A stretch of 64,000 nt of DNA from positions 481 through 64,480 of IMG/VR virus record IMGVR_UViG_3300045988_083449, one strand, 5' to 3'. Origin of the DNA: a virus. This document shows positions 11,825-61,800 of the stretch, one piece after another. Position numbers and translations under genes: made by a program. Each line of letters opens with the position of its first letter. Within the stretch, counting starts at the first letter, position 1. The notes beneath the pieces were generated by a model. The model did no database searches, was not told the origin of the DNA, and saw nothing but the letters and a program-made list of their open reading frames with translations.

Positions 11825-11827
11825 TCC

Positions 11828-37639: not shown

Positions 37640-38001
37640 TGACAATTCGTCTTCAGCTTAAACGAGCTACCGCAACTAAGAACGACACATATACAGGTGC
37701 CGAAGGTGAGATCACTGTAGACCTTACGAATATGAGGTTGCGAGTACATGACGGGTCTACTGCCGGTGGATACCCCGTTGCAAAAGCCGAAGATATTAAA
37801 ACGAAGCTGACCGATTATTCCGACTCTCCTTACCATACGAAGACTAGTTTGACAGGATTAAGTCAACTAACGAACGACGCTGGGTATTGGTCAAAGACCT
37901 CCTTAACGAAGTTGTCGCAGTTGACCAACGACGCTGGGTATATCACTGGATACTGTTCACATTGTTCGGGATATTGCACTTACTGCACACATTGTTCATA
38001 G
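37639..38001 (+). CDS. mini-fibre paralog 1 with C-terminal Cys ladder (5 Cys)
   Basis: N-terminal tail-fibre-type domain (LQLKRAT...GEITVD...VHDGSTAGG), two LSQLTNDAGY repeats, then a TGYCSHCSGYCTYCTHCS tail. Confidence 0.75.
   Translation: MTIRLQLKRATATKNDTYTGAEGEITVDLTNMRLRVHDGSTAGGYPVAKAEDIKTKLTDYSDSPYHTKTSLTGLSQLTNDAGYWSKTSLTKLSQLTNDAGYITGYCSHCSGYCTYCTHCS
37948..37998 (+). repeat. Cys-ladder tail of paralog 1
   Basis: GYCSHCSGYCTYCTHCS. TGY codons recur with a 9-nt period. Confidence 0.9.
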
Positions 38002-38008
38002 GAGAGTA

Positions 38009-38476
38009 ATGACAACACTTCAGTGGAAAAGAGGAACGACTGAGAAGGTTGAAGGATACGCTGAGACCGCTCTTGAGGGAGAGCTGGTCGTTGACACTGC
38101 GACTCATAGGGTGAGTGTGTATGACGGCGCAGGAGGAAGAAACGAAATTCCTCTTCTCTCTGATGTCAAAACAACTCTCGCTTCCTTAACGAATGATATT
38201 AGTGCTTGGAGTAAGAGTGATTTAACCAAGGTAAGTCAGTTAAGTAATGATTTAGATTTTTGGTCAAGCGGAACACTTAGCAAGGTAAGCCAGTTACAAA
38301 ACGATAGTGGCTTTAAGACGGGGTACTGTACGCATTGCCAATATTGTCAGCACTGTCAGCAGTGTAGTAATTGTCATAACTGCAACACCACACAATGTAC
38401 AACTGTCAATTGCTCCATTCAACATTGCCTAGTGATCTATTGTCTGTGCAATTGTGATTGCACTGACGATAGTTGA
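38009..38476 (+). CDS. mini-fibre paralog 2 with C-terminal Cys ladder (14 Cys)
   Basis: LQWKRGT...GELVVD...VYDGAGG N-domain, three (L)(T/S)KVSQLxND repeats, then a 51-aa tail GYCTHCQYCQHCQQCSNCHNC... Confidence 0.75.
   Translation: MTTLQWKRGTTEKVEGYAETALEGELVVDTATHRVSVYDGAGGRNEIPLLSDVKTTLASLTNDISAWSKSDLTKVSQLSNDLDFWSSGTLSKVSQLQNDSGFKTGYCTHCQYCQHCQQCSNCHNCNTTQCTTVNCSIQHCLVIYCLCNCDCTDDS
38321..38473 (+). repeat. Cys-ladder tail of paralog 2
   Basis: 14 Cys in 51 aa. The first seven are spaced exactly C-x2-C. Confidence 0.9.
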
Positions 38477-38488
38477 TAGTTAAAAGAT

Positions 38489-39070
38489 ATGAAAACAACT
38501 CAGTTAGAAAATGCGGCAAAAGTTCAGTTAGTTAGAGGAAGTAACGAAGCCACTTCCGCCCTATCAGGGTTGGAAGGAGAGGTGGTTTTAAACCTTACAG
38601 ATTTAAGTTTAAAAATAAATGATGGGGCGGCTCAAGGTTGGGTTGCTACGGCCTCTAATCAATTGGCGGCTCTTTCTCAGCTAGTGGATTCTGACTCAAT
38701 TTGGACATCAACAACTTTAGCCAAAGTAAGTCAACTCGCAAACGATTCTCAATTTTGGAAAAAATCTGAATTAACAAAAGTAAGTCAGTTAGAAAACAAC
38801 AGCGGGTACAAGACTGGTTACTGTACTTACTGTTCCCACTGTACTTATTGTCAAAAATGCAGCCGCTGCAATAACGTGCAATGTAGTCAGGTTCAATGTG
38901 GAAACTGCAATCACTGTACACAATGTTTTAAATGTCGGAGCACCGGAAACTGCGGGGACTCAGTTGTTAACTGTGGTCAATGTCATTGCTCGTATTACTG
39001 CAATGGTTATTGCTCAGATTGCACATACGTTCACTGTGTTTCCGATTGCATAAATCAACTAAACCAGTAA
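38489..39070 (+). CDS. mini-fibre paralog 3 with C-terminal Cys ladder (21 Cys)
   Basis: VQLVRGS...GEVVLN...INDGAAQG N-domain, three SQLxNDS repeats, then an 84-aa tail GYCTYCSHCTYCQKCSRC... Confidence 0.75.
   Translation: MKTTQLENAAKVQLVRGSNEATSALSGLEGEVVLNLTDLSLKINDGAAQGWVATASNQLAALSQLVDSDSIWTSTTLAKVSQLANDSQFWKKSELTKVSQLENNSGYKTGYCTYCSHCTYCQKCSRCNNVQCSQVQCGNCNHCTQCFKCRSTGNCGDSVVNCGQCHCSYYCNGYCSDCTYVHCVSDCINQLNQ
38816..39067 (+). repeat. Cys-ladder tail of paralog 3
   Basis: 21 Cys in 84 aa, mostly with C-x2-C spacing. Confidence 0.9.
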
Positions 39071-39081
39071 TAGGAGACAAT

Positions 39082-39975
39082 ATGGGTTATTCAAGACATG
39101 TTATTTGTCAAAGTGAAATTCCTTTCGTGATGAATATTGTCATCAATGATGACTCTATAGCTTTCAGGCTGCTGTCTGAAATTAATGAAAGCGTAAACGT
39201 AGCGACTGATGCAGTTCAGTTTGGGGTGGAAAAGTTACTAACAACGGAACAGCTCTCTTTTAATCCAGTGGCTTTCAACGTGAATGACAAAACGTTTTTA
39301 GTTGACGGAACAGAGTATGCCATCTACTCGGAGTTAATCTTTAATCGTGAAGATACTACGTATAACCGCCTACTTGTACCGGGAGCTCACTTTTGTTTTT
39401 GGTTGGATTTAAGCCGCCACCCTCGACTGTGCTTAGATGTTCGTGGAACGATGACTTATTTCAATCAGAGAAACACTGCTGAGTTGATAAAAGCGAAAGG
39501 CGGTCTTTGGCTGTTTGACTTTTGGATTCGTAATCCAGAAGACTCTTTCAAACAATGTAATCGTTCGATTACTACTTCGGTAACTACAAAACTTATTACC
39601 AACATAGATGACCTCGGGGAAGAGTGGGCTGCCGAAGATGTGATGACAGGCACTACCTCTAAGTGGTTGAACTTGGCGTATGAGTTAACGCCGAACAAAA
39701 CAGAGGTTGAACCTGAAGGCTGGGTTACATTCACTCTAAAAGTCCTTGACGGAAAGACTAAGGAGTTAGCGACTGATGTTACATATGACGGATATATTGT
39801 GGAGGCTGTCGATGGTTATGCGCCTCACAAGCGTGTGAATGTCGTTGACGGAATTGGAACCTTCAAAGTAAAGGCTTTCGGCTTGGAAAATGGAGATAAG
39901 CTGCGAGTCAAGATTAACCAACGTTTTTATACATCTCGAGTTGAAGCAACGGTTGATGTCGTATCGCCAACTTAA
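39082..39975 (+). CDS. hypothetical protein with C-terminal Ig-like (Big-type) domain
   Basis: ATG at 39082 follows AGGAGA; the track start at 38980 lies inside the previous gene. The C-terminus WVTFTLKVLDG...YIVEAVDG...GTFKVKAFG...LRVKI looks like a bacterial Ig fold. Confidence 0.5.
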   Translation: MGYSRHVICQSEIPFVMNIVINDDSIAFRLLSEINESVNVATDAVQFGVEKLLTTEQLSFNPVAFNVNDKTFLVDGTEYAIYSELIFNREDTTYNRLLVPGAHFCFWLDLSRHPRLCLDVRGTMTYFNQRNTAELIKAKGGLWLFDFWIRNPEDSFKQCNRSITTSVTTKLITNIDDLGEEWAAEDVMTGTTSKWLNLAYELTPNKTEVEPEGWVTFTLKVLDGKTKELATDVTYDGYIVEAVDGYAPHKRVNVVDGIGTFKVKAFGLENGDKLRVKINQRFYTSRVEATVDVVSPT

Positions 39976-40939
39976 CATTATGTTCGGTAGTGCCTGTGAT
40001 ATGAAGTGCGGGTACTGCCTTCAAACAAACGGTTTATCCCCAGCTGATAAGAAAGCAGATGCACAAGAGTTTGTGCAAAAGTTACTGCCGCACTTAAACG
40101 GTCAGACTCCTAAAAAAATAATGTATTGGGGCGGAGAGCCGATGCTTTATTGGGAGAGGATAAAAACTATTCATTCCCTCCTATCTGAAAATGGAATTGT
40201 TCCAAGTCAATCTGTAATCACTACTAACGGAAGAAGGCTGACAGAAAGCTATGTGGACTATGCGAATAGTCATGAAGATATATGGACAACCGTTTCCTGT
40301 CATGGCTGGGATTTCACGGATAAACAGTTAGAGACGATCTTTAAACTTAAGCGCTTCTCTCTGTCTGAACTTGTGCACCACTTCCGAACAGACCTATGGG
40401 AAATACGGGACAGGTACTACGAAATCAAAGATAAGTTCGGGGTTTCGCCCAATCTGTGTGTGCACTTTCTCAGAGCTAACGATGGGTGTAATACAGCCTA
40501 CTACATGACTAAAGAGGATGTGGATAAGTTCTGCGACCACATTCGTACTGAAGTAATCCCAATGGCTAGGCTAGGAGATGAATGGGCGCAATGGCAGTGT
40601 TCCCAACTCTTATTTGAACGAGACCGCATAATCGCCAAAGGCATTGGCCCTTTATGCGTAAGAAGCGATCAGCTATCCATTGACCTTCACGGCAATGTGT
40701 ACAACTGCCATCACAATTACTGCAAGACAAACATTGTGAGAAACGTTTTTGAAAAAGTAATACCAATTCAAAAAGCAGATTCATTATGTGGTTCTAGGTT
40801 TTTTAATTCCGAGGAATGCCAGTCTTGTGAATTATTAGAGCAGTGCAGAGGTGGCTGCTACACCTCTAATACACACGAGGTTGATTGTTACTTCGCAAAG
40901 GAAAGGGCAAAACTTTACGAGATTATGGAGAGACGATGA
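39956..40939 (+). CDS. radical SAM / SPASM-domain maturase 1
   Basis: CDMKCGYC (C-x3-C-x2-C, 39995-40018), YWGGEPMLYW, and a C-terminal C...NVYNCHH plus CQSCELLEQCRGGC (C-x2-C-x5-C-x3-C). The start could be 39956 or 39980. Confidence 0.85.
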   Translation: MSYRQLNIMFGSACDMKCGYCLQTNGLSPADKKADAQEFVQKLLPHLNGQTPKKIMYWGGEPMLYWERIKTIHSLLSENGIVPSQSVITTNGRRLTESYVDYANSHEDIWTTVSCHGWDFTDKQLETIFKLKRFSLSELVHHFRTDLWEIRDRYYEIKDKFGVSPNLCVHFLRANDGCNTAYYMTKEDVDKFCDHIRTEVIPMARLGDEWAQWQCSQLLFERDRIIAKGIGPLCVRSDQLSIDLHGNVYNCHHNYCKTNIVRNVFEKVIPIQKADSLCGSRFFNSEECQSCELLEQCRGGCYTSNTHEVDCYFAKERAKLYEIMERR

Positions 40940-42189
40940 AGTTAAAGTTGCATTGCAAAACGCATGACGGCAAACAGGAAGACTGGATTTACGACAACGT
41001 AACAAACGAGATTTGGAACAGTAATGGAGATTTAGTCGATCTATCTAAAGATGAAAGACTGAAGCCTTATGCGATGACAAAGCAACGAGAAAAACCTTCA
41101 CCAGTTTCTAATCACAAGTCCAATGAGATTTGGAACTTAAAGATTCAGTTAGGCCTTAAGTGCAATATGCATTGCAAGTATTGCGCACAAACTGGAAACG
41201 AAATCGGAGCTTCTGTTTTCACTCAGCGAGATGTCGAACCGTTTATCAAGAAACTCGTTGACAATAAGATCGAGGCTGTTGGCTCCATTGAACTATGGGG
41301 CGGAGAGCCCTTTGTCTATTGGAAAGTCCTTCAAAAGTTGATCCCTGAACTTAGAAGAATTTATCCCAAAGTGTCAATCGGGATGATCACAAACGGAACC
41401 CTCCTAACAGAAGAGAAGATTGAGTTCTTAGAAAAATATAAGTGCGGACTTACCTTCTCTCATGACGGACTTGGTTTTCACCTTCGTGGCAAAGACCCGT
41501 TGGACGACCCGAAGATGGTTGACCTTTGGAGGTTGGCAATTCAGAAACTCGGTGCAAACATCAACTGCGTACTCACTCCTGCAAATATAGACATTAACGC
41601 AACGGCGGAGTACATCCGGGAGAAACTTGGAGGAGTTTATTTCAACTTTGAAGGCGTGATGACCCACGTAGGTGTTCAGGATTCCGAGTTAATGTTTACA
41701 CCAGCTCAGATGCTCACGCTTCAGAAAAACATCTTTAACGAACTAACTAAGAATGGTTGGGATAAATTCCCAGCACTGACGAATGAATGTAACGAACTGC
41801 TCTTGCAACTGACTCAGAGAAAGAAGTTAGACCTTGGTACAGTTAAATGCGGAATGAATCGAGAAAACGTTTGTGCAATTAACCTCAACGGAGATGTTCT
41901 TTCGTGTCACGACTTTGCGACAAAGGAAAAGTACGTTGGTCATATATCTGCAATGGGTAAAGTAGATATTTCCAAACACTTTAAGTCTTGCGGCGAAAGA
42001 GAGAAGTGCCGAAAGTGTTTGCTTCTGTCCATGTGCCGTGGTGCCTGTCCTCAGATAGAAGGACTCGCTCGAACACTGACGTGTAAGAACGAGTTCAACT
42101 ATCACTTCGCTATTTTTCAGGCTGTGTGGTGGCTGCTGTTTGGTTTGACTATTGAGAGTTACGAGACTTTAAGTTGTCACTTGCAGTAG
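40936..42189 (+). CDS. radical SAM / SPASM-domain maturase 2, with ~70-aa N-terminal extension
   Basis: ATGA overlap with maturase 1. Motifs CNMHCKYC (41161-41184), LWGGEPFVYW, CGMNRENVCAINLNGDVLSCHDF and CRKCLLLSMCRGAC. Confidence 0.85.
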   Translation: MKLKLHCKTHDGKQEDWIYDNVTNEIWNSNGDLVDLSKDERLKPYAMTKQREKPSPVSNHKSNEIWNLKIQLGLKCNMHCKYCAQTGNEIGASVFTQRDVEPFIKKLVDNKIEAVGSIELWGGEPFVYWKVLQKLIPELRRIYPKVSIGMITNGTLLTEEKIEFLEKYKCGLTFSHDGLGFHLRGKDPLDDPKMVDLWRLAIQKLGANINCVLTPANIDINATAEYIREKLGGVYFNFEGVMTHVGVQDSELMFTPAQMLTLQKNIFNELTKNGWDKFPALTNECNELLLQLTQRKKLDLGTVKCGMNRENVCAINLNGDVLSCHDFATKEKYVGHISAMGKVDISKHFKSCGEREKCRKCLLLSMCRGACPQIEGLARTLTCKNEFNYHFAIFQAVWWLLFGLTIESYETLSCHLQ

Positions 42190-47654: not shown

Positions 47655-50200
47655 TGGCAACCAACAACGACTCCAACTGGGTAACAATCAATGGTGGTAA
47701 GTTTCCTGCCACCATTGGCGAGGAGTTTATTAACACTTGGGGCAAGTGGGAAACTGAAGGTTACAACGGCTTCAAGTTCAATGATTCACAGGCTACTTGG
47801 CAGGACTCCCAGTACAACGGTTCCTTTAGAGATTATGTCGGCATCAATAGTGACAAAAATATGCTCTATTGGATGAAGGGCAACTATGGCGACAAAAAGA
47901 AAGACTTTGACTTCAACGCTTGGGCTGATGCTCACCCTGATGAATATAAGGACTACAGAGACGAGAACGGAACTTGGTATCTAACCCCGGAAGGTAAGAC
48001 TGACCTTGAAGGAAGGGCTTACACACAGTGGTTAAAAGAGCAGAAGTATGACGTTAACAACACCAACCCAGTTGTCCAAATTAAGACTGGAAAGAAAGAA
48101 GGGACACAAGTTACATATAAATGGGACGAGTCTCTAAATGCTTACGTTCCTCACGAAGGTAAGGTTGTCTATTGGGATACTAGCAGTGGTCTTGGTCACG
48201 CTCTAAAGTCTTTTGGCTCTGCCATTGCAACGGGTATTGCCTCCTACTTTGGAGGCCCTTGGGCTGGAGCAGCAGTAGGTGCTGCTTCAGGACTAATCAC
48301 TTCTGAGGGTGATAACAAACTCCTTGACGCTGGTATGGGAGCTCTCGGTGGTTACATGGGTGGAGCAAACATGGCAGGAAATATCGGCGCCACAATTGGT
48401 GGCTCTGCCATTAAAGGAATAACTAAGAACGCTCTTCCCGATCTTGTTTTGAACATGGTTCAGACCGAGAGCGATCCAGGGAACCTTGCAGGAATCGTTA
48501 ATCAATGGAAGGTTGAGAACGGTAAAACAGCAGGTACAAGACCATTGACTGATGCTGAAACTGCGTTAATCAATCAATACGTTAATAACGCGAAGACTCT
48601 CTATCCATCGTTGTCGGAAGATCAAACAAAGAAGTTGGCTGATTACGCTGAGACTCTGACCCGAATGGGTTTATTCACAGAAGACACCGTTACCCAAAAG
48701 AATGATCAATGGCAACAGCTAAAGGAAGCTCTTGAGAAGTATCAGACCAACACTTCTCTCGGCAACGGAGGAAGCACAAACCTTGGAAACTCAATATCCA
48801 AAGATGTTCAGGACAAACAAGAAACAGCAGAAAAGACACTGCTCGGAGTGCTTGGCGGTACAGCTCTCTTAGGCGGATTAGGAAATATAGGACAGACAAG
48901 TATGGCAGATACAAACAACTTACTAAGCTCTCTCGCAGGGCTAGGAGCAGATGGCTTTAGAGTTTATCGAGGATACAGAGACTCGGGTAAATTCAACGAT
49001 TTATTTAACCAGTGGAGTGGTACGGCTGGTTCTCTTGTTAATAACGGACAGAACTTAGCCAACTCTCTTCAGAATCTTTACGACAAGACGGCCGATGGGA
49101 ATGACAAACTCTACGAGGCTCTTAAGGAAAAGATTAAAGTTCCGACTCGGAACGGAGATGAATGGCAGTCAACACCGTACTATCAAACTGCAACCCAAGG
49201 TTCTGAGAATGTCAACAACGCATTCGCAAAAGCATTGAATGCGGCAGATCAAATCAGCGGAGTGTACAACGACCTCGGTAAAGCTAAGTTCTACAACGAA
49301 GATGACGTGTACGGAATGTATCGCAAGTTTGCGAACGCTCGTACACAGTTGGCTGATAGAGCTGCGGCCTTGACAGACTCAAGAACGTATGCGGCTAACC
49401 GTGCAAATGGTGTCGGAACATCTACGGTACAGCAGGAAGCTCAGGCAGAGAATGCCCGTAAGTACATGGCAGACCTTGCCAATATTGATAGCCAGGCTTA
49501 CAGTGATGCTCTCAGCTACGTCTCCAACCTTTCTAAGTTGCAGACAGACCAGCGTAATGCGGCTATTGCTGAAGCGGTCAATGCGTTATCTCCGACAATC
49601 TCAACATCTACAAACGATGCGACAAACCAACTCCGTAACTCTCAGAATGAAATCGGAGCTTTGTGGTACGGGGATAAGGCGGCTGATCTTGAACGTGGTT
49701 GGTTGGCTAATACCTACGGCATTGGTTTGCAGAATCAAGGCAATATTCTTAACGCTCTAGTTGGTTTAAATTCCAACAACGTAAACGCCGCTACTAATCT
49801 CGCTAGTGGATTCGCAGGAGCATACGGACAGGCAATCAATGGATTAGGTCAAGCCTTAAATAAGACAACAGCAGACTTGTCTTCAGGTACAGGAGGCGGT
49901 TTACTTCAGGCGCTAGGACTTGCAGGTAAAGCATCAGGTCTTTCCGGACTTTTCGATGGAATCAACTACGCAGGAGCTAATGCTGCGGCTGATTCTTGGA
50001 ATGCATTGGTTGAAAGAACTGCATCACAAACGGGAACATCCTTAGAAGAAGCGGCGAAATGGTTGATGAATGCTGGTGGTGACCCAATTGAAGAAATCAT
50101 TAACGCCTCTGAGAGCGGAGGTTTTTGGTCGGGAATCGGCGACTCCATTTCTAGCGGTTGGGATTCACTAACCAATTGGTTTAGCGGACTGTGGTCGTAG
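47654..50200 (+). CDS. internal virion / ejection-type protein with glycine-zipper segments
   Basis: 848 aa with GGPWAGAAVGAASGL...GMGALGGYMGGANMAGNIGATIGGSAIKG. It lies upstream of the transglycosylase protein. Confidence 0.45.
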   Translation: MATNNDSNWVTINGGKFPATIGEEFINTWGKWETEGYNGFKFNDSQATWQDSQYNGSFRDYVGINSDKNMLYWMKGNYGDKKKDFDFNAWADAHPDEYKDYRDENGTWYLTPEGKTDLEGRAYTQWLKEQKYDVNNTNPVVQIKTGKKEGTQVTYKWDESLNAYVPHEGKVVYWDTSSGLGHALKSFGSAIATGIASYFGGPWAGAAVGAASGLITSEGDNKLLDAGMGALGGYMGGANMAGNIGATIGGSAIKGITKNALPDLVLNMVQTESDPGNLAGIVNQWKVENGKTAGTRPLTDAETALINQYVNNAKTLYPSLSEDQTKKLADYAETLTRMGLFTEDTVTQKNDQWQQLKEALEKYQTNTSLGNGGSTNLGNSISKDVQDKQETAEKTLLGVLGGTALLGGLGNIGQTSMADTNNLLSSLAGLGADGFRVYRGYRDSGKFNDLFNQWSGTAGSLVNNGQNLANSLQNLYDKTADGNDKLYEALKEKIKVPTRNGDEWQSTPYYQTATQGSENVNNAFAKALNAADQISGVYNDLGKAKFYNEDDVYGMYRKFANARTQLADRAAALTDSRTYAANRANGVGTSTVQQEAQAENARKYMADLANIDSQAYSDALSYVSNLSKLQTDQRNAAIAEAVNALSPTISTSTNDATNQLRNSQNEIGALWYGDKAADLERGWLANTYGIGLQNQGNILNALVGLNSNNVNAATNLASGFAGAYGQAINGLGQALNKTTADLSSGTGGGLLQALGLAGKASGLSGLFDGINYAGANAAADSWNALVERTASQTGTSLEEAAKWLMNAGGDPIEEIINASESGGFWSGIGDSISSGWDSLTNWFSGLWS

Positions 50201-50208
50201 GAGTAGAC

Positions 50209-52761
50209 ATGGCAGACGTAGCACAAACTAAATATAAATTCTCTGACAGTTACAGCGGTGTTCCTACTGGAATATTCAATGGAGCCGCAGGAGGTTATCA
50301 CTTCGGAGGAGGTTGGGACGCTGAGACAGACCGCAGAGCATCCAAACGAGCCGAAGGTCTACAGTTATTCAAGGACTATGTACAGACCTTAACGGACAAC
50401 GGAATTGTTCCTAATCAAAACTCTCTCAACAATTTCCTTGGCCAAGCAAGTGGCTTTGGATTAGATGCTTCCTACGGGTTTGACCCGTATGCGGCACAGC
50501 AGATGATGGAGTCGGCGATTGCTCAAGGTGTAAACAAGAAGCGGGAAATCGCAGAGAAGAAACTTAAGACTGAAGCGGAAAACTCAGCGAACATTACAAC
50601 GCTCTTATCTACGGAAAGAGGTAATTACAAAACAATGGAGGAAACTCTTGAGAATGTTGCTCAGAGAAATCCTGACATTGATAAGACTCGTATTGCCAAC
50701 CTAGCTGCTACCGCAGAACAGAAATGGAACGATGATGTCTTTAAAGGTATCGACGTAACAACTAAGGGAGTTATTGACGAGGACTCGTTTGAAGGTTGGA
50801 AGCAAAGCAATCCCAACTCCACGGAACAACAGCAGAATTACTACAAACAAGCCGTTGCCAACAACAGAACAACTCTGATTGAAAACACAGCAAAGACCAT
50901 TGGTCTTGATGTCGGCAACCTAACGAAGTCAGACGAAGAGCTTACGAAGATGGCTATTGCTCGTTTGCCGGATAACGCTAAGAACGATCAGGGAATCGTG
51001 TCAGGTGTTGTAAAGGCTATTCGTGGTAACGCTCTAAACCAAAACGCTACCACAGGCAGAACCGTCGCTGAAAATGTTGCGAAGTCTATTCCTGAAGTTG
51101 CAACACAATCTTTCGAGCAAAGGGAAAAAGAAGAGGTTGCTAAACAGCAGACTCGTGCCAAGCTGGACGAAGCGGCAAGACAAGGCCCTCAGAATCGTTC
51201 TGCAATGAAGGCAAGGCTCCGAGAGAACTTGACTAAAGCAAAAGGGAATAAGGAAGCCAACAAACTTTCTGTCGCTCGTACAGAGGCGATGATTGACTAT
51301 ATGCTTTCTCCTAAAGCGGAAGAGTTAATCGGCAATGCTAAGACGGAGAGTGAACTAAAAGAAGCGTTGGCTGATGCTGTGAAAAAACACTTAGCCTTTC
51401 CGAGAGAAATTGAAGATCAAATTACTCTACAGGACAACGGTTTTACCAATCCTACAAGAATCTCTTCCTCTTACGGAACGAATCCCTCTCACGACTACAA
51501 CACGTTCGTCCGTAACGCTAACCCTATCGTGAATCCGTTGATCGAAGGAAACGTTGATGCCATTCAGAAGGCAAGAGTTTCAGGAATTGAGAAGGACTTA
51601 ACCTCTGCTAGAGACAGTATCGCCGCAGTTATTGGAGGAAGACTTCAGTCAGTTCGTGACGGATTAGCTTCTGCGGGTGTTCATGCTTATTCCGATGCTG
51701 AGTTGATGAAGCTGGAAAGTCAGTATGTCGGCGAAGCCTTGATGAATAAGGGGTTGACCAACGAAGATCGCAGATACATTTTCAACAAGGTGTATGCCTC
51801 TATCGGAAATCCGCCCTTTATCGAGAAGTCTGTAGATGTGGTTGAGAGAAACTTCGGACAGCTCAACAGCCTTATCAGAGCTAACGTTCCTCCGAGTTCT
51901 GTAAACACTATGTATCCCAATATTGGGGCTGACACCTCCAATAGAACTCAGCCTGTTCCGATGACACCTGAGCAGAGACAAAAGATCATCAATGAGTCTT
52001 GGGCTCATTGGCAAGGTATTCCTTCTCAAACTATGCCGACCCCTAAGCCTGTACGAGCGGAAGAATCTCTGATCGAAAAAATAATTCCGTCGGCTAATGC
52101 GGCTGAGTTTAGACCTGCAAGGGAAAACGTATGGATGGATTCCGAGACAGGAGAAGCAACAAACACTCCGTATGTTACGCAGTTGAAGCAATATCCTGAA
52201 TCGTTCTTCAATACCATGAGATACGATGACCCGAGGCTGAATAAAGCGGCTGTTCATTTGAACAACCAATACGGTCTGCCCACAGGGTTGCTCAACGCTA
52301 TCAAGAATGCAGGTGAACGTTCAAATAATAATCAACGCCCTGACTTTAAGAAGACTGGTTCGACTGCTCAAGGCGTGATGCAGATTACGAATACAACAAT
52401 GAAGGGAACAACTAAGTACGGAAGCCTAAAGCATAATCGCCTCAATGCTGTGGAGAATATGGAAGCCGCCGCTAAGTTGTTGTCCCATGAATATCAGAGA
52501 CTACAAAGAGCCATTCCTGCATGGAGTAATGCAAATCCGTTGTTGGCAACAATCATTCAATACAACGTTGGGTCAGAAGCGGCAAACAAGTACATTAAGT
52601 CCGGACGGATAGACAACATTGGTCTTCAGTCTCATCAGTTCGCATACCTCAGGCGAGTCCTTGAATACATGAGAGATCATCAGAAAGAAGAGGCTTTAGA
52701 GTATCGGAACGACATGGAGAACGGGACAAGCGGTGCGACCTGGGAGATCGCAATGAACTAG
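50209..52761 (+). CDS. internal virion protein with C-terminal lytic transglycosylase (SLT) domain
   Basis: ATG at 50209 follows AGGAG. NAGERSNN...GSTAQGVMQITNTT...IIQYNVG resembles the E...AxGlMQi...Y SLT signature (about 52260-52650). Confidence 0.6.
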   Translation: MADVAQTKYKFSDSYSGVPTGIFNGAAGGYHFGGGWDAETDRRASKRAEGLQLFKDYVQTLTDNGIVPNQNSLNNFLGQASGFGLDASYGFDPYAAQQMMESAIAQGVNKKREIAEKKLKTEAENSANITTLLSTERGNYKTMEETLENVAQRNPDIDKTRIANLAATAEQKWNDDVFKGIDVTTKGVIDEDSFEGWKQSNPNSTEQQQNYYKQAVANNRTTLIENTAKTIGLDVGNLTKSDEELTKMAIARLPDNAKNDQGIVSGVVKAIRGNALNQNATTGRTVAENVAKSIPEVATQSFEQREKEEVAKQQTRAKLDEAARQGPQNRSAMKARLRENLTKAKGNKEANKLSVARTEAMIDYMLSPKAEELIGNAKTESELKEALADAVKKHLAFPREIEDQITLQDNGFTNPTRISSSYGTNPSHDYNTFVRNANPIVNPLIEGNVDAIQKARVSGIEKDLTSARDSIAAVIGGRLQSVRDGLASAGVHAYSDAELMKLESQYVGEALMNKGLTNEDRRYIFNKVYASIGNPPFIEKSVDVVERNFGQLNSLIRANVPPSSVNTMYPNIGADTSNRTQPVPMTPEQRQKIINESWAHWQGIPSQTMPTPKPVRAEESLIEKIIPSANAAEFRPARENVWMDSETGEATNTPYVTQLKQYPESFFNTMRYDDPRLNKAAVHLNNQYGLPTGLLNAIKNAGERSNNNQRPDFKKTGSTAQGVMQITNTTMKGTTKYGSLKHNRLNAVENMEAAAKLLSHEYQRLQRAIPAWSNANPLLATIIQYNVGSEAANKYIKSGRIDNIGLQSHQFAYLRRVLEYMRDHQKEEALEYRNDMENGTSGATWEIAMN

Positions 52762-52837: not shown

Positions 52838-55800
52838 ATGTCTGTTGAATCGCTTATCCAAGCAGGACAAAAAGGTTACGCCAACATTCACGATAACGAC
52901 TTTTACTTTTCCGATTCCAACTTTAAAGAGATTGGAGAAAATGAAGAGTTAACAAAGTTCTTTATGAAGCAAGTTGACCCTGACGGCTCTAAGTATGGTG
53001 GAGATGTTGAGAAGGCAAAGACGGGTTTCTTGAATGACTATACATTCAAATCAAACTCCATTTGGGGAGAGGTGAAGGGAGCGGTTCAATCTGCCAATTA
53101 CTCTGAAGAAGAAAGACAGCAGAAGAATTTCCTTCAGCGTATGTACGATACAGCTCCCAACCGTTTGACAGGTAGTGACGGTGTAAGCGGAGCCGCTCAA
53201 GCCTTAGGTTACGGTTTGGCTGGTGGTCTTGTCGGTGAAGACGGTGTTGATCTTGGAATCAATATCGCATCTACTGCCGCATCATCTTGGCTTGGTGCAA
53301 AGATGGGTGCTGCGGCTGGTACTGCTGTAGCTCCTGGTGCAGGTACAGTTGTAGGTGGAGCTCTTGGTGCAATTACAGGCGGAGCCTTAGCCTTATTTGG
53401 CAAGGGAGCTTTGGTCAAAGGAACTCAGCAACTCACTAAGGAGGGGGCACAACAGCTTCTAAAACAAATTGCCACGAAGGAAGGCAAAGACGCCTTAGTC
53501 AAACAGGTCGCTAAAGAATACGGATGGAATACAGCTAAGGCAGAGTTCGCAGTCAATGGTGTGTTAGGCGGAGTAGGCGGAGCCGCTGAGGAATACAAGA
53601 ACGAAAACATCGGGCTGTCTGAAGGCAACTTCACGGACTACCTAACGTCAGCAGGTGGCGGTGCTTTAATGGCTGGTGGTATCGGCGGAGCTTTAGGCTA
53701 CGTTACTTCTCGATTCGGAGAAGGTCGCCGCCTCAGTAAAGAACTGGTTCAGGATACCCGTGACGGTCAGAAGATCATGGCTACCATCGGTGATGACGGC
53801 CCTCGTACTTACCGTGAAGCTATCGAACAGAGACTCAAGGACATTGAGGAAAAAGAAAAGCCGACACAAGACGAGATTATTCAGAAACAACAGCTTGAAG
53901 CTGAAAAGAAACTCTACGATAAGTACCGCATTCCCCTGACAGAAGAACAGCGACAGGGTGTCAACGATCTCTGTTCTGATCTTTCTATCCAGCTTAGACA
54001 GGAAGCTAATGAGCTTGACACATTCCCGTCTACTTCCGGGCATTCTCCTGAAAAACTCAGAGCTGTGGCTGATATGTTGGACAACCTTCTTGACTTCAAC
54101 TCGGCAGAGAAAGCTGTGGTTGATGCCGAGAAATCGTTGGTAGGCGGAGGTGATGATGCACGAGCTAACCTTGCGAGAGTGAAGGCTAAGTGGTCTGCTT
54201 TACGCAGTATTGGCAAGTACCTAAACGACAATAAGTTAGGCGAAAGAGATTCCGTCTACAGTCTCTTAGATGACGCAACGTTCATGGACTTCGCCAAGAA
54301 CCTGGACGAGAACGTTAAGAATGCGATTATTGCTGAGAACAAACGTGTCTATCCTGAAGCAGGTCTGCGTCCAGGAGAAGAGCTCCATCCCCAAACGCCT
54401 ATCGCTCAACCTAAGGACACAAAGGGAGCTACCGCAACCAAACCTCAGCCTGACACTAAGGCGTCCCGTAAGAAGGCAGATATAGCCATCAAAGATAATC
54501 AGTCCGGCAAATCCGCTTCTAAGATCATTGACGAACTAAAGCAGGAAGCTCAAACCAATCCTGAGGAATCAGCCTTAGCTTCCATGACACCTGATGAAAT
54601 CGGAAGCATTGCACCGACAATTGAGGATGTGATTGCTGGAATGCCGAAGGAACAGGCATCTGTTCTGACCCAGCTTACTCAGTCTTCCGTTAAGCCTGAC
54701 GGTACTCCGTCTCAAGTGCCTAAAGAGTTCATGGATGCTTTGCGTTCTATTCCTGAAGACGAAGGTCAGTTCCAACAGTTGGTAGCGAATCTATCCCAAG
54801 GTTCTGGTATTCCAGCCGATCAGTTGGCTCCTGCGTTGAAGGCCGCTAAACAAAGCTATGCCGCAAAGGTTACAGAGATTGAAGCTAAGGTTGGCGATCT
54901 TAAAGCGACTAGTGAACAGATTCTTGAGAGATTAAAGAACGCCCAAGAACAAAGTGCTGCTACGTCTGAAGCGACACCTATATCTGCTGAGATTACACCT
55001 CCGAAAAAGACTCACGAGCAAATCTCTCGTGAAGCTCAAAAGAAACGTGATCAGCTTCAAGCTGAAGCAGATATGACTAAGGCAGACAAAGACGAAGTTG
55101 TCCAACGTCTGAGCCAAAGTGTATCCAAGACTCGTGAAGTATTCGCATCTAAGGAAACGGAAGTCACTAGCTTGATTCAGGATGGAATGTCCTTAGAAGA
55201 TTTCAAAGGCACCGTTCCTGAAAGACTTCAACCGTTGATCGAAGGCGTCACCGATATGGCTACTGCTAGAACAGTGATCAAAGAGAATGCCCAGAGACTT
55301 GCAGACTACTCAATCCTTTCGTCTATCAACGATGTTGTAGGCAGTGAGAACCTGGTTCTCTTTAAGAAGTTCCTACCGTTGTTCGGTGATGATAAGGATG
55401 CAGTACGCCTTGCTAAACGACTGGATAACGTCGTTGCAGACATACACGCTAGAGCGCTCAACGAAGCCGATGGTGAGGGTTTTGATTCCGTCTTAACTTC
55501 CGCCATCAACAAGGGCTTGGTGCCTCTCAAAGGCGCAAGAAAAGGCCGTATTGACCCTGTTCTTGAAGCGGCTAAATGGCTTCCTGAAAACGTAGATGAG
55601 AAGGTTAAAGCCAAGGCGGAGACATTAGCCAAGCGGGTTGCAAAGAGCTGTGAACATAACGCTCAATTTAAGAAGCTATCTGAAGAAGCTCAGAACTCCA
55701 TTAAGGTTCGTCTGATTCAGTCCAGGGTTCAAGGTTACTTAGCTAATCGAGCTGAGTATGAAGGCGTCAAGAACTCAGTTGCCGCCGATATTCAGAAAGC

Positions 55801-58800
55801 ATTCGACAGTGTTGAAGCATTAAAGGGTCAGAAGTTTGACACTATGCAGGATGCAATGTCTGCCATTGGTTCCGCTGAAGAACGCTATCGCTATGTACAG
55901 TCGGAAGATTACATTCAGTCGAAGTTGGACGACTTCTTTAATAAGTATCAGGAACCTGCCAACCTTGCTCCGCATCAGAAAGAAGAAGGCGGTAAGCCTG
56001 TCTATGATGAAAAAGGCAACTTGGTTAAGGTCGAGAAAAAGAAGGGCGTAGTTGACGAGAAGGGTAATGCTGTATACGAAACTCGATATAAGAACGTCAA
56101 CCTGAATACAAGCTCGTCTAGGTACAACCTTCGAAAGAACTTTGATCAGGTTAAAGCTAATGCTCTCGCTACAGCTTCCGGTAGAAAGGCCGGTAAAGAG
56201 ATTGCAGCTCTTGCCCAGAAATTAAATCCGGAAGGATTCAAATCCTTAGATGCAAAAGGATTAACAGAGAAAGAAGCTGAAGGCTTGATCTTGGAAGGAA
56301 TGTTTGATCGCATTATGAATATGCGTGAGAAACAAATCCTCGACCGTCTTGTCAAGAACATGGTTGACGGAACGGAAGACCTCGACGAACAGGCGTTTGA
56401 AGAGATCGGTAGAAAGTTTTGGAATACCAAGTTCACAGATTCCGATAAAGCAATCCTGAAAGAAGTTGCACGTGACGAGTTTGAACACGCTAGAGAACGT
56501 GAAAAGCTGAAAGCGGTCATCACTGCTTATGCTGATAAAGAGAAACTTACTGGAGCGGACAAGCAGATTCTTTCTCGAATCATCGAAGGTATGAACCGAA
56601 TGCTGAAGGAACAGCATGATGTTGTGATCGAGAAGAAAACCAAAGGTGCTAAGAACGCCGTTGACTTTAACAAGACAACACCTATTGTCGAAGCTAAAGA
56701 TGTTGTCCTTGACGAAAAGACTGGCAAACTTCTTATCTTCGGTAAAGAGTACGGTACTTTTATTAAAGACGAATCAGGAAGAATTGTTGTCACGAATCAG
56801 GCAGGTAACACACTCACTCCCGCAGAGAACCTTGAGAAGCTGATGGGACGCAAAAACTTCCAAAAGATTTTACGTAAGGCGGAAAAAGAACAAGCACAAG
56901 AAGCAAAGCCGAAGGTTGCAAAGGAGACAGAAACTAAAGCTCCTGTGACTGCCGATGAAATTATTGAGGAAGTTAGAGCTGATGCTGTTGACGAGATTGT
57001 CGAGAGAGAAGCGGTGAAGTCTGCTGAGACAGAGAAGTCTATCGCCGACTCTGCTTCCACGTTTACGTCCGAGGATTTAGACCGTCCGATCACTGACTAC
57101 TATGCTTTAGTAACAGACGATCAGTTCATTACTGCCCGTGTAAAACGAGCTGATGGTTCTGTGGCGTGGAAACATATCTATATAAACAAGGCTAACCCTA
57201 ATGCTTCCATGAGAACAGCCTTGGGTAATTATCAGAAACAGATCGACCTCGGCAATGTAACGATCATGGGTTGTCCTCTTCGTGGTGGAAAGCGTAAAGG
57301 AGCTGATACTGATTGGTGTGCTCAGAATGCTTTCTACCTAACGAACAACAAAAGAGGAAAGACCGACCCTGCGTGTATCTCAGAGAAAAAAGCTCAAACA
57401 AAACTTGACGGAAGAGTTGCTGAGATTAAAGATTCAATCGGCAACGATGACCCATTGATTCACTTAAAAGCTATGGATTATCCGTTAGAGGAGAAGGAGC
57501 TGAAGTCCGTCTTCTTTACGGGAGAAAACGGAGAAGAGATCAACGGCCTAGACTTTATCAATTCGTTTGAACAACGAGCACAGCAGCTCTCGATTGCGCC
57601 GGGTATGACTCGTGATGCCTTTGAGAAGGAAGTTGCAAAACTCTCTTCGATGGCAAGACTAATTAACGAGAAGCTCCCTTACGGTTATCGCAGAGACAAT
57701 TCAAGCCGCATCAACTCTGCTCGTGGTCTTATGGTAAGAATGAAAGGACTCAATCCGTCCGAGAAGATTTCTGCCTTGAGAGCATTGCAACAGTTGGATA
57801 AAGACTTAGCACCCAACTCCTCACCCTACATCTTCAAAGGTACAGACGAAACACCCTCAGGATTTGGTTACGAGCAGAACGGAAAGATCAACAAGAACGG
57901 TAAGAGAGCAGATAAGATTCTTGTACCTAACGGAACCGATGGGGTTCAATGGTCTCCTGCTGTATCACACGAGCTTCTGCACTGGGGCTTTACCAATCTG
58001 CTTACGCCTGATGAAAAGATTCAGTTCCTTGAAACTTGTGCCAAGAAGTATTTCAACGAGGACGGGACGGTTAATACCAAGTTAGCAGTGAAGATCGGCG
58101 GAAGTAAAGAAGCTGTGTTTAAGGCCGACGGTTCTTTAGATGTAGCTGAGCTTTTCGCATACGAAGGAACAGGTTATTACGGAGACCGTTTAACCAAACA
58201 GGCTGCTCAAGCAAACGATTCCTTCTGGGATATGTTGGTATCTAAGTTCAAAGATTTGATGTCTTGGATTCAAGGCATGAGAAACGACATCTCGCCTGAG
58301 AATATTGAACTCTTTGAAAAGATTCTCCCAAGTGAGTACAACTCCAATCGTTATGAAGCAGGTGTTCTGTACGACTTGACCGCTAAAGAAAGAGTCGCAG
58401 TTTCTACGCTTGATTCAAAGACCAACAAAGGTGTTCATGGTTTGAACATTATGAACAACCTTGAGAAGGTTAGAGCTGATGCATTCAGAGCTATGTTCGA
58501 CCCGTCTATGTCTTTGCTTGATCGAGCCGAAGCAATGAAGAGTGTTGCCGGATATCTCAAGGGAGTGATTCACGGCTCACGTACTGAGATTGGTTCTGAG
58601 TACATCGCAAAAATCAGAGGAAAGATTATCGGCTACGCCGAACAAATCTCTGATGCTGAAGGTAATAAGCTCATTGAAAGTAAGCTGAAGACTAACAACT
58701 TATTTATTAAAGGCAAGAAAGATAACCGACAGTTCGGCACAGTTCTTGAGGTTTATCAAGATCGGTACAAGAGCCTTGGCTACTCAGACGAAGAAGCAAA

Positions 58801-61800
58801 GAGATTGGCTGAAGGTTCTGTTATTGATGACGTATTGGATAAGGCAGAACGAGGTGATGCTTTGTATTCCGACGATCTTCTGTTTGATGATGTTGGAGAA
58901 GATGCAGGATACCGTGCAACCAATACTCAGTCTCCTGATGCTGACACTCGTTCCTTGTCCCCTGAACGTTTAGCTGAGATCAACGAACAGGCAGAAAAGG
59001 AAACATTGGACGAAGCTAATAAGTGGCTGAGGGAAAACAACCTTCCTGAAGTTCACTCGGACAACGAACTGTCTGCCGCTTTTGAAGCAGGGAATATTCC
59101 TCGGGAAGAGATGATGGACTTCATGGACTTCTATGAAACCCGTCTCGAAGAACTTAAAGGTACAGCACAAGCGGAGCTTGTTAATAAAACAGAAGTGGGA
59201 GCGCCGAGAGGAAACAGTGCTGCTGTTCAGAAAACATTGGGCAGACTGTACGACATCATTGTTGACGCAGAAGATTCTGTTATCACAACGATGAAGAACA
59301 ACGGTTATGCTCTTGCTCCTAACGAACGTCACCGTCCGAGTGTTGCACCTAAGGGAGAGAAGTTCACTCCTCCGTCTAAGCCAAGTGGCCCGAAGACTCC
59401 TGAGGTAAACGTCGTCAAAGAAAGCGTTGATGCCAAGGCTCTGTTAGGTGAAACAGACGGCATTCCGAATCTTGCGCCTCCGAAGATTAAAGCAGTTCTC
59501 GATTCTATTCTTACATCAGAAAAGCCTGAGGTTAGAGACGCCGTTCGTAGAATGCTGTTCCGCTACAGTGAGTTCTTAGGCAGGGATGATCTAACAGTCA
59601 GAGACATTGCAAACCTATTAGACATTGAGCTTCCTGAGTTTATTGACCCTGATAAAGTGGTAGATGCCTCTGCTAGTTTTATTGCGAATCCGAACGGCAG
59701 AAAAGCTGATGCTGACTTTTACACAGATGCGACAACTAAGCTCAAGTCAATCGGCTTGTACCTTACTCAGGGAGCGAAGTCTGATGTGAACCAGTTGCTA
59801 TCCGCCAATCTCTATCTATCCTTAAGCGACAGCATGAGTATGGATGTGTTGGAAGATGGAATTAAATACATCTTTGATGTTGGAGCTACTCCAAGAGTTA
59901 GCCGTGATTCTTACAAAGCAAGACTTCTCAATCTTCCAGAGAACGTCCTTGACGGCATGAGAGAGTTCCTGAAGACTGACGATCTTAAGAAAGCCTTTGC
60001 GGATATTGACTTTGAGAAAGGAACTGAAGGAGCATTCTTTACCATTGATGGCAAGAAGGTTCCTGTCGGTGATGTGGTACAGACTGTTTACAGCAACCTT
60101 GCTCCTGAACCTACAACAGTCAAAGCCTACACCCCAATTACAGGAGCGATGGATACAGCAATTGATAACGGTTATGCACAGAACACATCGTCTGCCGCTG
60201 TTCGTATCGCCGCTTTGGGTAAGGGATGTACTCCTGCCCAAGCTGAGGTTACAGCAGGTTTAATTCCCACACGCATTCGTAATTGGTGGGGAGACTCTGT
60301 GTTCAAGAAAGCTCTGACTTCTATGGACAACGGTCTGTCTGTTGTTCTTTCATCCAACACCAAACGCTGTAAGGACTTAGGCGCCAACTTCCTTGCCGAA
60401 ACAGGACGATTCTTCTACGAAGATAAGTCACGCTTCATTGGTAAACACTACGACAAACTTCAGACTGCTTTGCGTGAGCTGAGAGGAAGTGAGGTAAAGG
60501 GTAGATCAAACCTTCGCAATCAGATCGGCAACGACTTTGAAGATATAAAGCGAAGCCTTCTGACGAACAACCATCTCGGTATCGTTACAGAGAACGAACG
60601 TGGAGTTATCGACTTTATGCGTACAGCTACAAACGATAACTGGCAACGCAAATGGGATAACCTTAACGAGGTTCAGAGAAATGCCGTCACAGAACTGACC
60701 AACCAGTTTGAAACCATTCGTAAGGAGATGGTTGATCTCGGTATTCAGGTCAACGACTACCGTGGAATGAACGGCATTCTCCATTACCTGCCGCAGAGAT
60801 TCAATAAGGATTGGGTCACAAACAACCATGACAAGTTTATGGAAGGTATGACTAAGTTCTTCGTGAGCGAAGGAAAGTCTCAGCGTGATGCAGTGAACGT
60901 TGCGGAAAGTCTGTACTCCCACATTGCCAACGACTTTGAGTTCTCAGGATTCTCAGGAACCGACCCGAAGTTTGCTCGTAAGAGCGGTGAAGGTTTGTAC
61001 GCTCGTGTACTGAACATTAAGCCCGAGCAGTGGAAAGAGTTTGGTCTGACCGATATGTTCGACAACAACCTTGAAGCATTGGCTCGTGACTACATTGACC
61101 ATGCAGGTACGCTGATTGAACGAACCAAACGTTGGGGTGTTGAAGGACACGGAAGAGCTGCTTATTTCTCCGTACAAGCCGGTGGTCTTGACGGAGCTGC
61201 TAACGTTCTGATGCACAGTCAAGAAGCACAGAAACGAATCTTCCAAAGCGGAGACAACGCTAGATTAAATTCCGCATTGGAAGTAAATCTCTTCGGGCCT
61301 TTAACAACCAATCCTGAGGAAGCAAAGAAGATTGCAGAGTCTATTGAAAGAGCACTGAACGATGGAGTTTCGGTTGACAACATTGTGAACACGCTCGTTC
61401 AGTTGTATGCCGCAAACAGAGGAGCAGGGCTTGTTCACTTCCAGCGTGAAATGAACTGCCTTGTCAACGGCATTAAAGACTTCGGTCTGTCTGTCGGCCC
61501 TGATGCAAAGATTCCTCAGAAACACGCTAAGTATTTAGTACAGGCGTCTGACCTTCTTACAGGCATGAGAGGAGCTCCCAAAGACGACATGGCTGCTATC
61601 GGTTGGATGACATCTCTGAACAACATGACCATGCTTTCAATGGCAACGATTGCATCCTTGTCCGACGTTGGTTTGATCGGTGTTCGTTCAGGTGAAGTGA
61701 TGCCGTTCATTAAAGGTATCAAGGCAACCATGAAGCAGATGGCAGGAGGAGATCAGGCAGAACGTGATGCCATTCGTTCTCTCGGCGTCCAGTTTGAAAC

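Follow-up and report, generated by a model that had tools for sequence, protein, structure and literature searches.

A phage cassette pairing cysteine-tailed fibre paralogs with two radical-SAM/SPASM enzymes, and a candidate thioether-stapled fibre tip

In ranthipeptide/SCIFF systems (CteA-CteB and the freyrasin pair PapA-PapB) and in sactipeptides, a Cys-rich C-terminal region is encoded beside radical S-adenosylmethionine (radical-SAM)/SPASM enzymes with two auxiliary clusters, and several regularly spaced Cys are each turned into a thioether (PMC8172795). The closest working analogue of the locus described here is QhpC/QhpD, where a radical-SAM/SPASM enzyme ties Cys to Asp/Glu by several thioethers inside a small protein, stabilising its structure and yielding no secreted peptide, a precedent for a protein substrate (PMC8172795). 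We analysed a 64,000-nt stretch of viral DNA (the window; positions 481-64,480 of IMG/VR virus record IMGVR_UViG_3300045988_083449, all coordinates being window-based unless a locus is named), in which three neighbouring fibre-type paralogs, P1, P2 and P3, end in Cys-rich tails and are followed by genes for an accessory protein (ACC) and two radical-SAM/SPASM enzymes (rSAM1 and rSAM2). On balance, we consider it probable that the tails are protein-borne substrates resembling those of RiPPs (peptides made by the ribosome and modified after translation), and that the phage enzymes staple them by thioethers into a redox-independent fibre tip. Directly observed are the anatomy of the tails, the invariance of their Cys, an enzyme class with intact cluster motifs and a strict synteny across unrelated phage backbones; from these we infer the substrate role of the tails, the thioether chemistry, the part played by ACC, the tip location and the contact with a receptor. 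The genes are tightly packed on one strand, with 7 nt between P1 and P2 and 12 nt between P2 and P3:

37268-37639, + strand: fibre segment of 123 aa, coiled-coil, with the C-terminus ...VIDLGTIE; stop overlapping the start of P1
37639-38001, + strand: P1, 120-aa putative fibre-tip paralog; Mtd_N, then LTKxSQLxND repeats, then 5 Cys in a tail of 17 aa (37948-37998)
38009-38476, + strand: P2, 155-aa paralog; 51-aa tail (38321-38473) with 14 Cys
38489-39070, + strand: P3, 193-aa paralog; 84-aa tail (38816-39067) with 21 Cys
39082-39975, + strand: ACC, 297-aa putative accessory protein; beta-rich N-terminal part and C-terminal Ig/macroglobulin-like domain
39956-40939, + strand: rSAM1, radical-SAM/SPASM enzyme of ~327 aa; start uncertain (reading frame opens at 39890), overlapping the ACC end
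40936-42189, + strand: rSAM2, radical-SAM/SPASM enzyme of 417 aa; ATG overlapping the rSAM1 stop, ~65-aa N-terminal extension ahead of the core

Compared with ranthipeptide/SCIFF systems, where the precursors are short peptides (~45 residues) made up of a leader and a Cys-rich core, the candidate substrates here are fibre proteins of 120-193 aa (250-480 aa in distant cassettes) with an Mtd_N domain. The cassette is without a detected RiPP recognition element (RRE), protease or exporter, its enzymes score far under the equivalog cut-offs, and the zoning of the tails into C-x2-C, C-x4-C and C-x-C stretches, the fixed paralog trio and ACC have no counterpart there. The 'Cys every fifth' pattern of CefA/CefB is resembled only by the C-x4-C zone of the tails, and both enzymes score below the CefB cut-off. 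QhpC differs in belonging to a periplasmic enzyme of bacteria, as a subunit that has a quinone cofactor and three links, outside any fibre context. Among phage proteins, the T4 long-tail-fibre needle gp37, with its HxH iron sites, also carries short-period residues of metal-binding type at the distal tip of a trimeric fibre; its ligands are His and no modifying enzymes accompany it, whereas here HxH repeats are absent, His is unconserved and radical-SAM genes are obligatorily linked. Mtd of Bordetella phage BPP-1 shares the N-terminal Mtd_N and is likewise a distal, host-range-determining fibre protein, but it ends in a retroelement-diversified C-type-lectin fold, whereas P1-P3 have Cys tails and no diversity-generating retroelement. 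The enzymology falls within that of SPASM maturases; what is new is the kind of substrate, the fixed set of three paralogs, ACC and the setting in a virion. In the full-text literature, as covered here without most subscription journals, we found no paper that connects radical-SAM enzymes with the fibre or virion proteins of phages.

The cysteine tails and the proteins that carry them

A sequence-only reading of this DNA had described a graded and strict C-x2-C ladder at the C-termini of the three paralogs. The gradation is borne out: P1, P2 and P3 hold 5, 14 and 21 Cys, which are confined to the C-terminal tails and missing from the first ~105 residues, the tails match the letters then quoted, all three open with ...TGYC(S/T)(H/Y)C, and the start then reported, 37948, falls on the G of the P1 junction. 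The Cys content of the tails is 25-29%, vs 0.73% for 17 long open reading frames (ORFs) in the window, and the binomial chance of such a content is 1e-7 for P1, 1e-18 for P2 and 3e-26 for P3. The junction occupies nearly the same position in each chain (residues 106, 107 and 112), the first five rungs being common and the ends extending 17, 51 and 84 residues past it. "Strict", on the other hand, overstates the case, as just 20 of the 37 Cys-Cys intervals are C-x2-C and the rule holds solely over the first 5-7 Cys; the remaining intervals form ordered C-x4-C and C-x-C zones. Cys-to-Cys spacings are 3, 4, 3 and 3 in P1; six of 3, four of 5 and three of 2 in P2 (a 7-Cys C-x2-C run, four C-x4-C and three C-x-C, with the end CDCTDDS); and, in P3, five of 3, two of 5, four of 3, then 6, 7, 3, 2, 4, 4, 3, 5 and 4. 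The zones run from the first C-x2-C stretch, with Y/H/F before and S/T/Q after each Cys, through a Q/N-rich C-x2-C stretch, C-x4-C units (TTVNC, SQVQC) and a variable part to a C-x-C run with (G/T)DD at its end. Between the Cys, the residues met most often are Thr, Ser, Asn, Gln and Asp, and each tail has 3-7 Tyr and 2-4 His.

The 9-nt recurrence of TGY codons, also noted earlier, exists at the DNA level as two weak arrays detected by Tandem Repeats Finder (38345-38365 and 38818-38851) and does not extend beyond them. Given that these two arrays are all the program returns, the Cys period is maintained at the protein level, and fresh 9-nt slippage was rejected as the origin of the ladder. Two haem-c-like CxxCH motifs occur, CSNCH in P2 (38366-38380) and CGQCH in P3 (38969-38983); c-type haem attachment was discarded because the His is not conserved, Tyr (C..CY) replacing it in relatives. 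Searches of PDB sequences with the bare tails gave nothing for P2 and, for P3, chance-level matches to multihaem nitrite reductases (E ~0.1), and PHROGs hold no family for the tails and none for ACC.

The possible objection, named in the sequence-only reading, that homologues might not conserve the Cys periodicity is not borne out. The period-3 Cys are invariant in all 29 aligned homologues and across ~18 clusters at 50% identity, and the five junction Cys are kept in 29/29 across all three types. One relative, 77-82% identical, has the three paralogs with every Cys in place and the intervening residues changed; among close relatives of P3, 0/21 Cys columns vary, compared with 31/62 (50%) of the non-Cys columns in the tail and 23% of columns in the N-terminal part. 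The 5<14<21 gradient describes the window phage and does not hold as a rule, related cassettes reading 5/14/17-18, 5/16/13 and 4/16/10; the general pattern is one short 5-Cys form with two long forms, P1 orthologues having 117-121 aa and 4-5 Cys in every cassette. When the window is profiled against the sister phage L052, identity is 89% for the 123-aa segment, 91% for P1, 69% for P2, 55% for P3, 45% for ACC, 80% for rSAM1 and 98% for rSAM2. On this profile P3 and ACC form a diversification hot-spot, as at host-range determinants, and the earlier suggestion that the three tails differ in reach or receptor specificity is thereby plausible.

The presumption that P1-P3 are fibre-type proteins is supported by their N-terminal parts. 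Pfam Mtd_N (PF18454) matches P1 at 35.7 bits (cut-off 26.3) and P2 at 21.1 bits, under the cut-off; P3 itself gives no match, but PF18454 is among the precomputed annotations of most P3-type homologues. After Mtd_N, each paralog has three ~17-residue LTKxSQLxNDxGxW repeats, which are common to thousands of long phage fibre proteins: searched against 1.84 billion representatives, the family profile matches 9,182 proteins (E<=0.001), and among the matches listed are mostly long fibre proteins, matched repeatedly in the N-terminal parts of P1-P3. A C-x2-C ladder tail is found in only ~18 representatives of these matches. The exact P2 protein is present on 142 public contigs, which makes the system an abundant one, and its annotation is only 'major tropism determinant'; P3 bears the same public name, ACC is a 'hypothetical protein' and the enzymes are 'SPASM domain-containing protein'. 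In the window the trio is preceded by a chain of collagen-like and coiled-coil fibre segments, and in the myovirus-type prophage L016 it directly follows baseplate J, wedge and gp10-like genes. The protein just before P1 shares an end motif across unrelated cassettes (...VIDLGTIE in the window, ...IDLGELS in L016:6575-7144, ...VDLGGLS in L025:2306-4150). This motif may be a docking site for Mtd_N domains, and the 123-aa segment is the probable attachment point of P1-P3. Taken together, Mtd_N, the repeats and the position after baseplate or fibre-segment genes point to P1-P3 as short proteins of the distal fibre, with a Cys tail standing in for the receptor-binding domain that usually forms the C-terminus.

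Removal of the tails from mature virions had been raised as a possible objection; they appear to be retained. In many orthologous fibres a Hint or Hint-like C-terminal domain directly follows the Cys tail (L025:4525-5457; P0017, P0134 and P0137; L001:4811-6262, which is gp028 of Achromobacter phage JWF; L020:2986-5139), Pfam confirming Hint only for JWF gp028 and the P0137 match lying below the cut-off. The N-terminal Cys of the Hint-like domain, the cleavage site of such domains, falls exactly at the window P2 stop (...CNCDCTDDS|CFVSG). Since the predicted cleavage of the fused orthologues thus corresponds to the P2 stop codon, the coincidence suggests a mature protein that ends in the Cys tail and does not lose it. 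The arrangement recalls the self-cleaving C-terminal domains of fibres and spikes (endosialidase-type intramolecular chaperones and Hint/BIL domains), in that C-terminal self-removal in some P2-/P3-type orthologues and in JWF gp028 would expose a C-terminus like that of window P2; the window P1-P3 differ in lacking any such domain. One may speculate that a Hint-derived thioester serves C-terminal ligation or cyclisation.

The linked enzymes, ACC and the spread of the cassette

Pfam Radical_SAM matches rSAM2 at 50.8 bits (cut-off 29.5) and rSAM1 at 28.0, slightly below, and the SPASM model TIGR04085 scores 36.1 and 34.3 bits for rSAM1 and rSAM2 vs a cut-off of 27. The CX3CX2C motif, which serves the SAM-binding [4Fe-4S] cluster, is intact in both: C16, C20 and C23 in rSAM1 (44-50/50 homologues) and C76, C80 and C83 in rSAM2 (39/39). 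Ten of the 11 motif Cys of rSAM1 are invariant in 50/50 homologues and the first is kept in 44/50; the seven SPASM Cys (CX9-15GX4C ... CX2CX5CX3C ... C) are all present in 50/50 homologues of rSAM1 and in 38-39/39 of rSAM2. The nearest NCBIfam families of the two enzymes are maturases that form Cys thioethers in RiPPs (PapB, SCIFF, nif11, CefB, QhpD, CcpM), the best being PapB for rSAM1 and the PapB, nif11 and SCIFF maturases for rSAM2. Among solved structures, rSAM2 is closest to CteB (5wgg, its best PDB match) and rSAM1 to SuiB and CteB. A sulfatase-maturase reading, the one annotated for JWF gp030, was rejected, as there is neither a C/S-x-P/A-x-R motif nor a sulfatase-fold partner.

ACC has no match in Pfam, NCBIfam or PHROG, and none of its 46 homologue clusters carries a functional name. 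Its AlphaFold2 (AF2) model, with a predicted local distance difference test score (pLDDT) of 91, shows an all-beta N-terminal part and an Ig/macroglobulin-like C-terminal domain. Against PDB folds the match is confined to this generic domain, the search returning no RRE, chaperone or enzyme fold, and the full-length structural relatives in BFVD are uncharacterised phage proteins only. A family motif, TEC(A/N)RSITT, is near-invariant at residues ~157-165 (C159, R161, S162), and ACC co-varies with P3 and not with the enzymes. A 331-aa version, extended into the P3 tail in another frame (38980-39975), was dismissed as an artefact, orthologues starting at the MGYSRHV Met (39082).

Searched with an alignment of ACC, IMG/VR viral contigs yielded 43 loci, and gene order was counted in the 34 whose ACC identity is at least 41%. 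The order P1-P2-P3-ACC-rSAM1-rSAM2 is kept in 34/34, and both enzymes are present in 30/30 loci with at least 2.3 kb after ACC. Starting instead from fibre homologues, ACC follows in 6/6 contexts and radical-SAM genes in 4/4 where the contig continues. The cassette is mobile as a unit across unrelated phage backbones, as it is found in a probably temperate phage with an SU10-type capsid, in a myovirus-type prophage and in Sutterellaceae genomes. Genome matches are to Parasutterella, Sutterella and Duodenibacillus, all Sutterellaceae, and rSAM1 homologues are named from Parasutterella muris. The window phage itself has the SU10-type capsid, and neither its nucleotides nor the P3 protein match any of 50,697 phage records, so no close relative is present in that collection.

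Distant cassettes keep a Cys-rich fibre end paired with radical-SAM genes on quite different fibres. Those of L055 and L066 (409-420 aa) end ...CDCACDCDCGDD and ...CDCRCDCDCNDD, that of L063 ends ...YCSYCSYCSYCCRDCCDDCGDD, and that of L020 ends ...CNCNCNCCNCGDD ahead of a Hint-like domain; JWF gp028 reads ...CNCDCNCNCS before its Hint domain, and Ralstonia RSP15 ORF048 reads ...NCQCGN and is followed by the ACC-like ORF047. The number of radical-SAM genes ranges from one per cassette (JWF) up to four or more (L013, L019). A low-GC variant on a 275-kb contig (L013:4714-13305) surrounds the trio with an aminotransferase gene and four genes for radical-SAM enzymes, and places ACC between P2 and P3. 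Presence or absence across cassettes yielded no clean rule by which rSAM1 or rSAM2 could be assigned to particular tail zones. In L020 a 649-aa radical-SAM gene (10253-12202) is fused to a domain resembling a separate ORF of ~270 aa (L020:5124-5975; L019:441-1244), which sits between Hint-fused fibres and ACC and may be a second accessory family, tied in by the gene fusion. L066:4885-8044 (Parasutterella muris GCA_009767915.1, contig WSRP01000009.1) combines a 409-aa fibre ending NCNCDCRCDCDCNDDNCGE with an ACC-like protein and an rSAM1-like enzyme, and adjoins NrdD and another radical-SAM gene. As we take this assembly to derive from a cultured isolate, it provides an experimental handle through which the stapling hypothesis may be directly testable. 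The radical-SAM clusters of Ralstonia RP12 and of L065, a faecal clone, were set aside, being without a Cys-rich fibre neighbour and probably unrelated systems.

The proposed thioether stapling and its rivals

How could such a tip be made? Mtd_N would provide N-terminal attachment and trimerisation, followed by the three 17-residue shaft repeats, the TG(Y/H)C junction and the Cys tail, the latter acting as a RiPP precursor core region borne on a structural protein. During fibre making in the cytoplasm, rSAM1 and rSAM2 would turn Cys thiols into thioether (Cys-S-C) cross-links to neighbouring residues of the same chain or between chains, and ACC, which co-varies with the tails, might present the substrate or assist assembly as a tail-specific helper. 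The product would be a compact, covalently stapled tip independent of redox state, with the frozen Cys as its scaffold and, as an exposed surface that probably contacts the receptor, the fast-evolving residues that separate them. Enzymatic stapling is favoured because the tails never occur without linkage to the two radical-SAM/SPASM enzymes and ACC where the flanking DNA is complete enough to tell. Thr, Asp and Glu are known to accept thioethers, and the natural motif of PapB is Cys-X3-Asp (PMC8172795); the conserved C-(D/N)-C-x-D-D end of the tails contains Cys-X3-Asp. The likely hosts are Sutterellaceae from gut samples. Members of this family are gut anaerobes, and for phages of such hosts disulfides should be unreliable and oxygen-sensitive radical-SAM enzymes workable, thioethers thus being a sensible replacement for disulfides.

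The three chains fit alternative homotrimeric tips as well as one tapered heterotrimer. In the latter, the chains would stay in register through Mtd_N, the shaft repeats and the first five C-x2-C rungs, and then end successively at 17, 51 and 84 residues. Such a tapered, RiPP-like heterotrimeric needle, stapled (possibly between chains) by the radical-SAM enzymes and binding its receptor through the hypervariable residues between the Cys, is offered tentatively, and we rate it as possible but doubtful. Were it real, no earlier virion protein cross-linked by radical-SAM enzymes would be known, and viruses of strict anaerobes would have a substitute for disulfides that is independent of redox state.

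Several observations weigh against thioether stapling. The PapB model gives 59 and 87 bits for rSAM1 and rSAM2 vs a cut-off of 340, the SCIFF maturase model 43 and 67 vs 425, the QhpD model TIGR03906 40 and 57 vs 453 (with no qhp context), CefB 26 and 61 vs 600, CcpM 48 vs 500, and TIGR04463 28 and 38 vs 525. With scores far below every NCBIfam equivalog cut-off, the reaction type of the two enzymes can only be guessed from their nearest neighbours. No RRE family match was found in rSAM1, rSAM2 or ACC (Pfam, NCBIfam and, for ACC, the fold search), and P1-P3 match no NCBIfam model at E<=0.01. We know of no characterised thioether precedent for a run of up to seven C-x2-C repeats, and the AF2 monomer of P3 (23-sequence alignment) reaches a pLDDT of 42 overall and ~33 in the tail, giving no readable fold. 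The radical-SAM cluster of RP12 does without a Cys-rich fibre neighbour, and the gene linkage could reflect some other job at the fibre.

If the enzymes do act on the tails, their chemistry might be another one: cyclophanes between aromatic residues and C-beta on (Y/H)-C-(S/T/Q), C-C or C-O links, epimerisation, or conversion of Cys to formylglycine. The almost constant Y/H/F before Cys in the first zone makes an aromatic-X-X triplet like triceptide motifs, weaker NCBIfam matches include the cyclophane-forming YhhB and FxsB and the anaerobic sulfatase maturase, the last agreeing with the annotation of JWF gp030, and the variable number of radical-SAM genes, from one to four or more per cassette, suggests several chemistries. 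Yet the invariant residue is Cys and not the aromatic, the C-x4-C and C-x-C zones keep their Cys without aromatics, the top family and structure matches are thioether formers, and the sulfatase motif and partner are missing, as noted above; we therefore deem a different radical chemistry unlikely. The sequence-only reading had put forward instead an axial metal-thiolate ladder and a disulfide-locked needle, neither of which holds up as the leading explanation. For the former, in which period-3 Cys on the trimer axis would bind Zn, Fe, Cu or Fe-S clusters and the radical-SAM genes would serve otherwise, one can cite the 25-29% Cys with metallothionein-like CxxC, CxC and CC spacings, the His that often adjoin Cys, the failure of AF2 to fold the apo P3 monomer, and a three-residue period that should place the Cys on one face of an extended or polyproline II-like strand. 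His, Tyr and Phe interchange, however, at the same positions across orthologues, and this His/Tyr swap before Cys speaks against a strict need for metal ligands; Pfam and NCBIfam gave no match to metallothioneins or other metal-binding families, and the PDB searches with the tails gave nothing significant. Metallothioneins are Cys-rich and poor in aromatics and His, so that the aromatic-rich tails would be atypical of them, and a metal ladder would leave unexplained why ACC and two SPASM enzymes are invariantly linked. We view this reading as distinctly unlikely.

A needle knotted into a rigid tip by intra- or inter-chain disulfides after release would account for frozen Cys with variable loops, as in disulfide-rich mini-proteins, and beta-helical antifreeze proteins use regularly spaced disulfide Cys likewise. 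The counts of P1 (5) and P3 (21) are odd, though, so that neither a homotrimer of either nor a 1:1:1 heterotrimer minus P2 could pair all its Cys; assembly would take place in a reducing cytoplasm, with release from anaerobic Sutterellaceae into the anoxic gut; and the cassette includes no thiol oxidase or isomerase, yet has two radical-SAM enzymes and an accessory gene that a disulfide needle leaves out. We hold it to be very improbable. Finally, the fibre-like N-terminus might be a leader from which the Cys-rich core is cut and released, for instance as a bacteriocin, the order of leader, Cys-rich C-terminal core and radical-SAM/SPASM enzyme being that of ranthipeptide and sactipeptide clusters (PMC8172795). 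Such an origin for free peptides is extremely improbable: there is no protease or exporter in the cassette, the genes belong to tail modules, where they come straight after genes for the baseplate or fibre shaft, fibres of 250-480 aa have the same Cys ends, and the Hint-like cleavage point lies after the tail and not before it.

Should thioether stapling be true, this would be a case of RiPP-type radical chemistry directed at the phages' own structural proteins and a new class of virion post-translational modification. It would extend the known substrates of SPASM maturases beyond peptides to assembled fibres, and account for a disulfide-like rigidity gained without oxygen by phages of strict gut anaerobes. 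The scaffold of frozen Cys with variable loops would then determine host range and be open to engineering.

Neighbouring genes in the window

The short fibrous proteins 5' of P1 (35887-37639) comprise one that is collagen-like (326 aa) and two that are coiled-coil (136 aa and 123 aa). Further downstream, a 3349-aa ORF (52838-62887) has no match in Pfam and is preceded by an 856-aa ORF (50191-52761) with a C-terminal SLT transglycosylase domain. An integrase gene lies on the minus strand at the window end (62884-63906), and the window phage is thus probably temperate.

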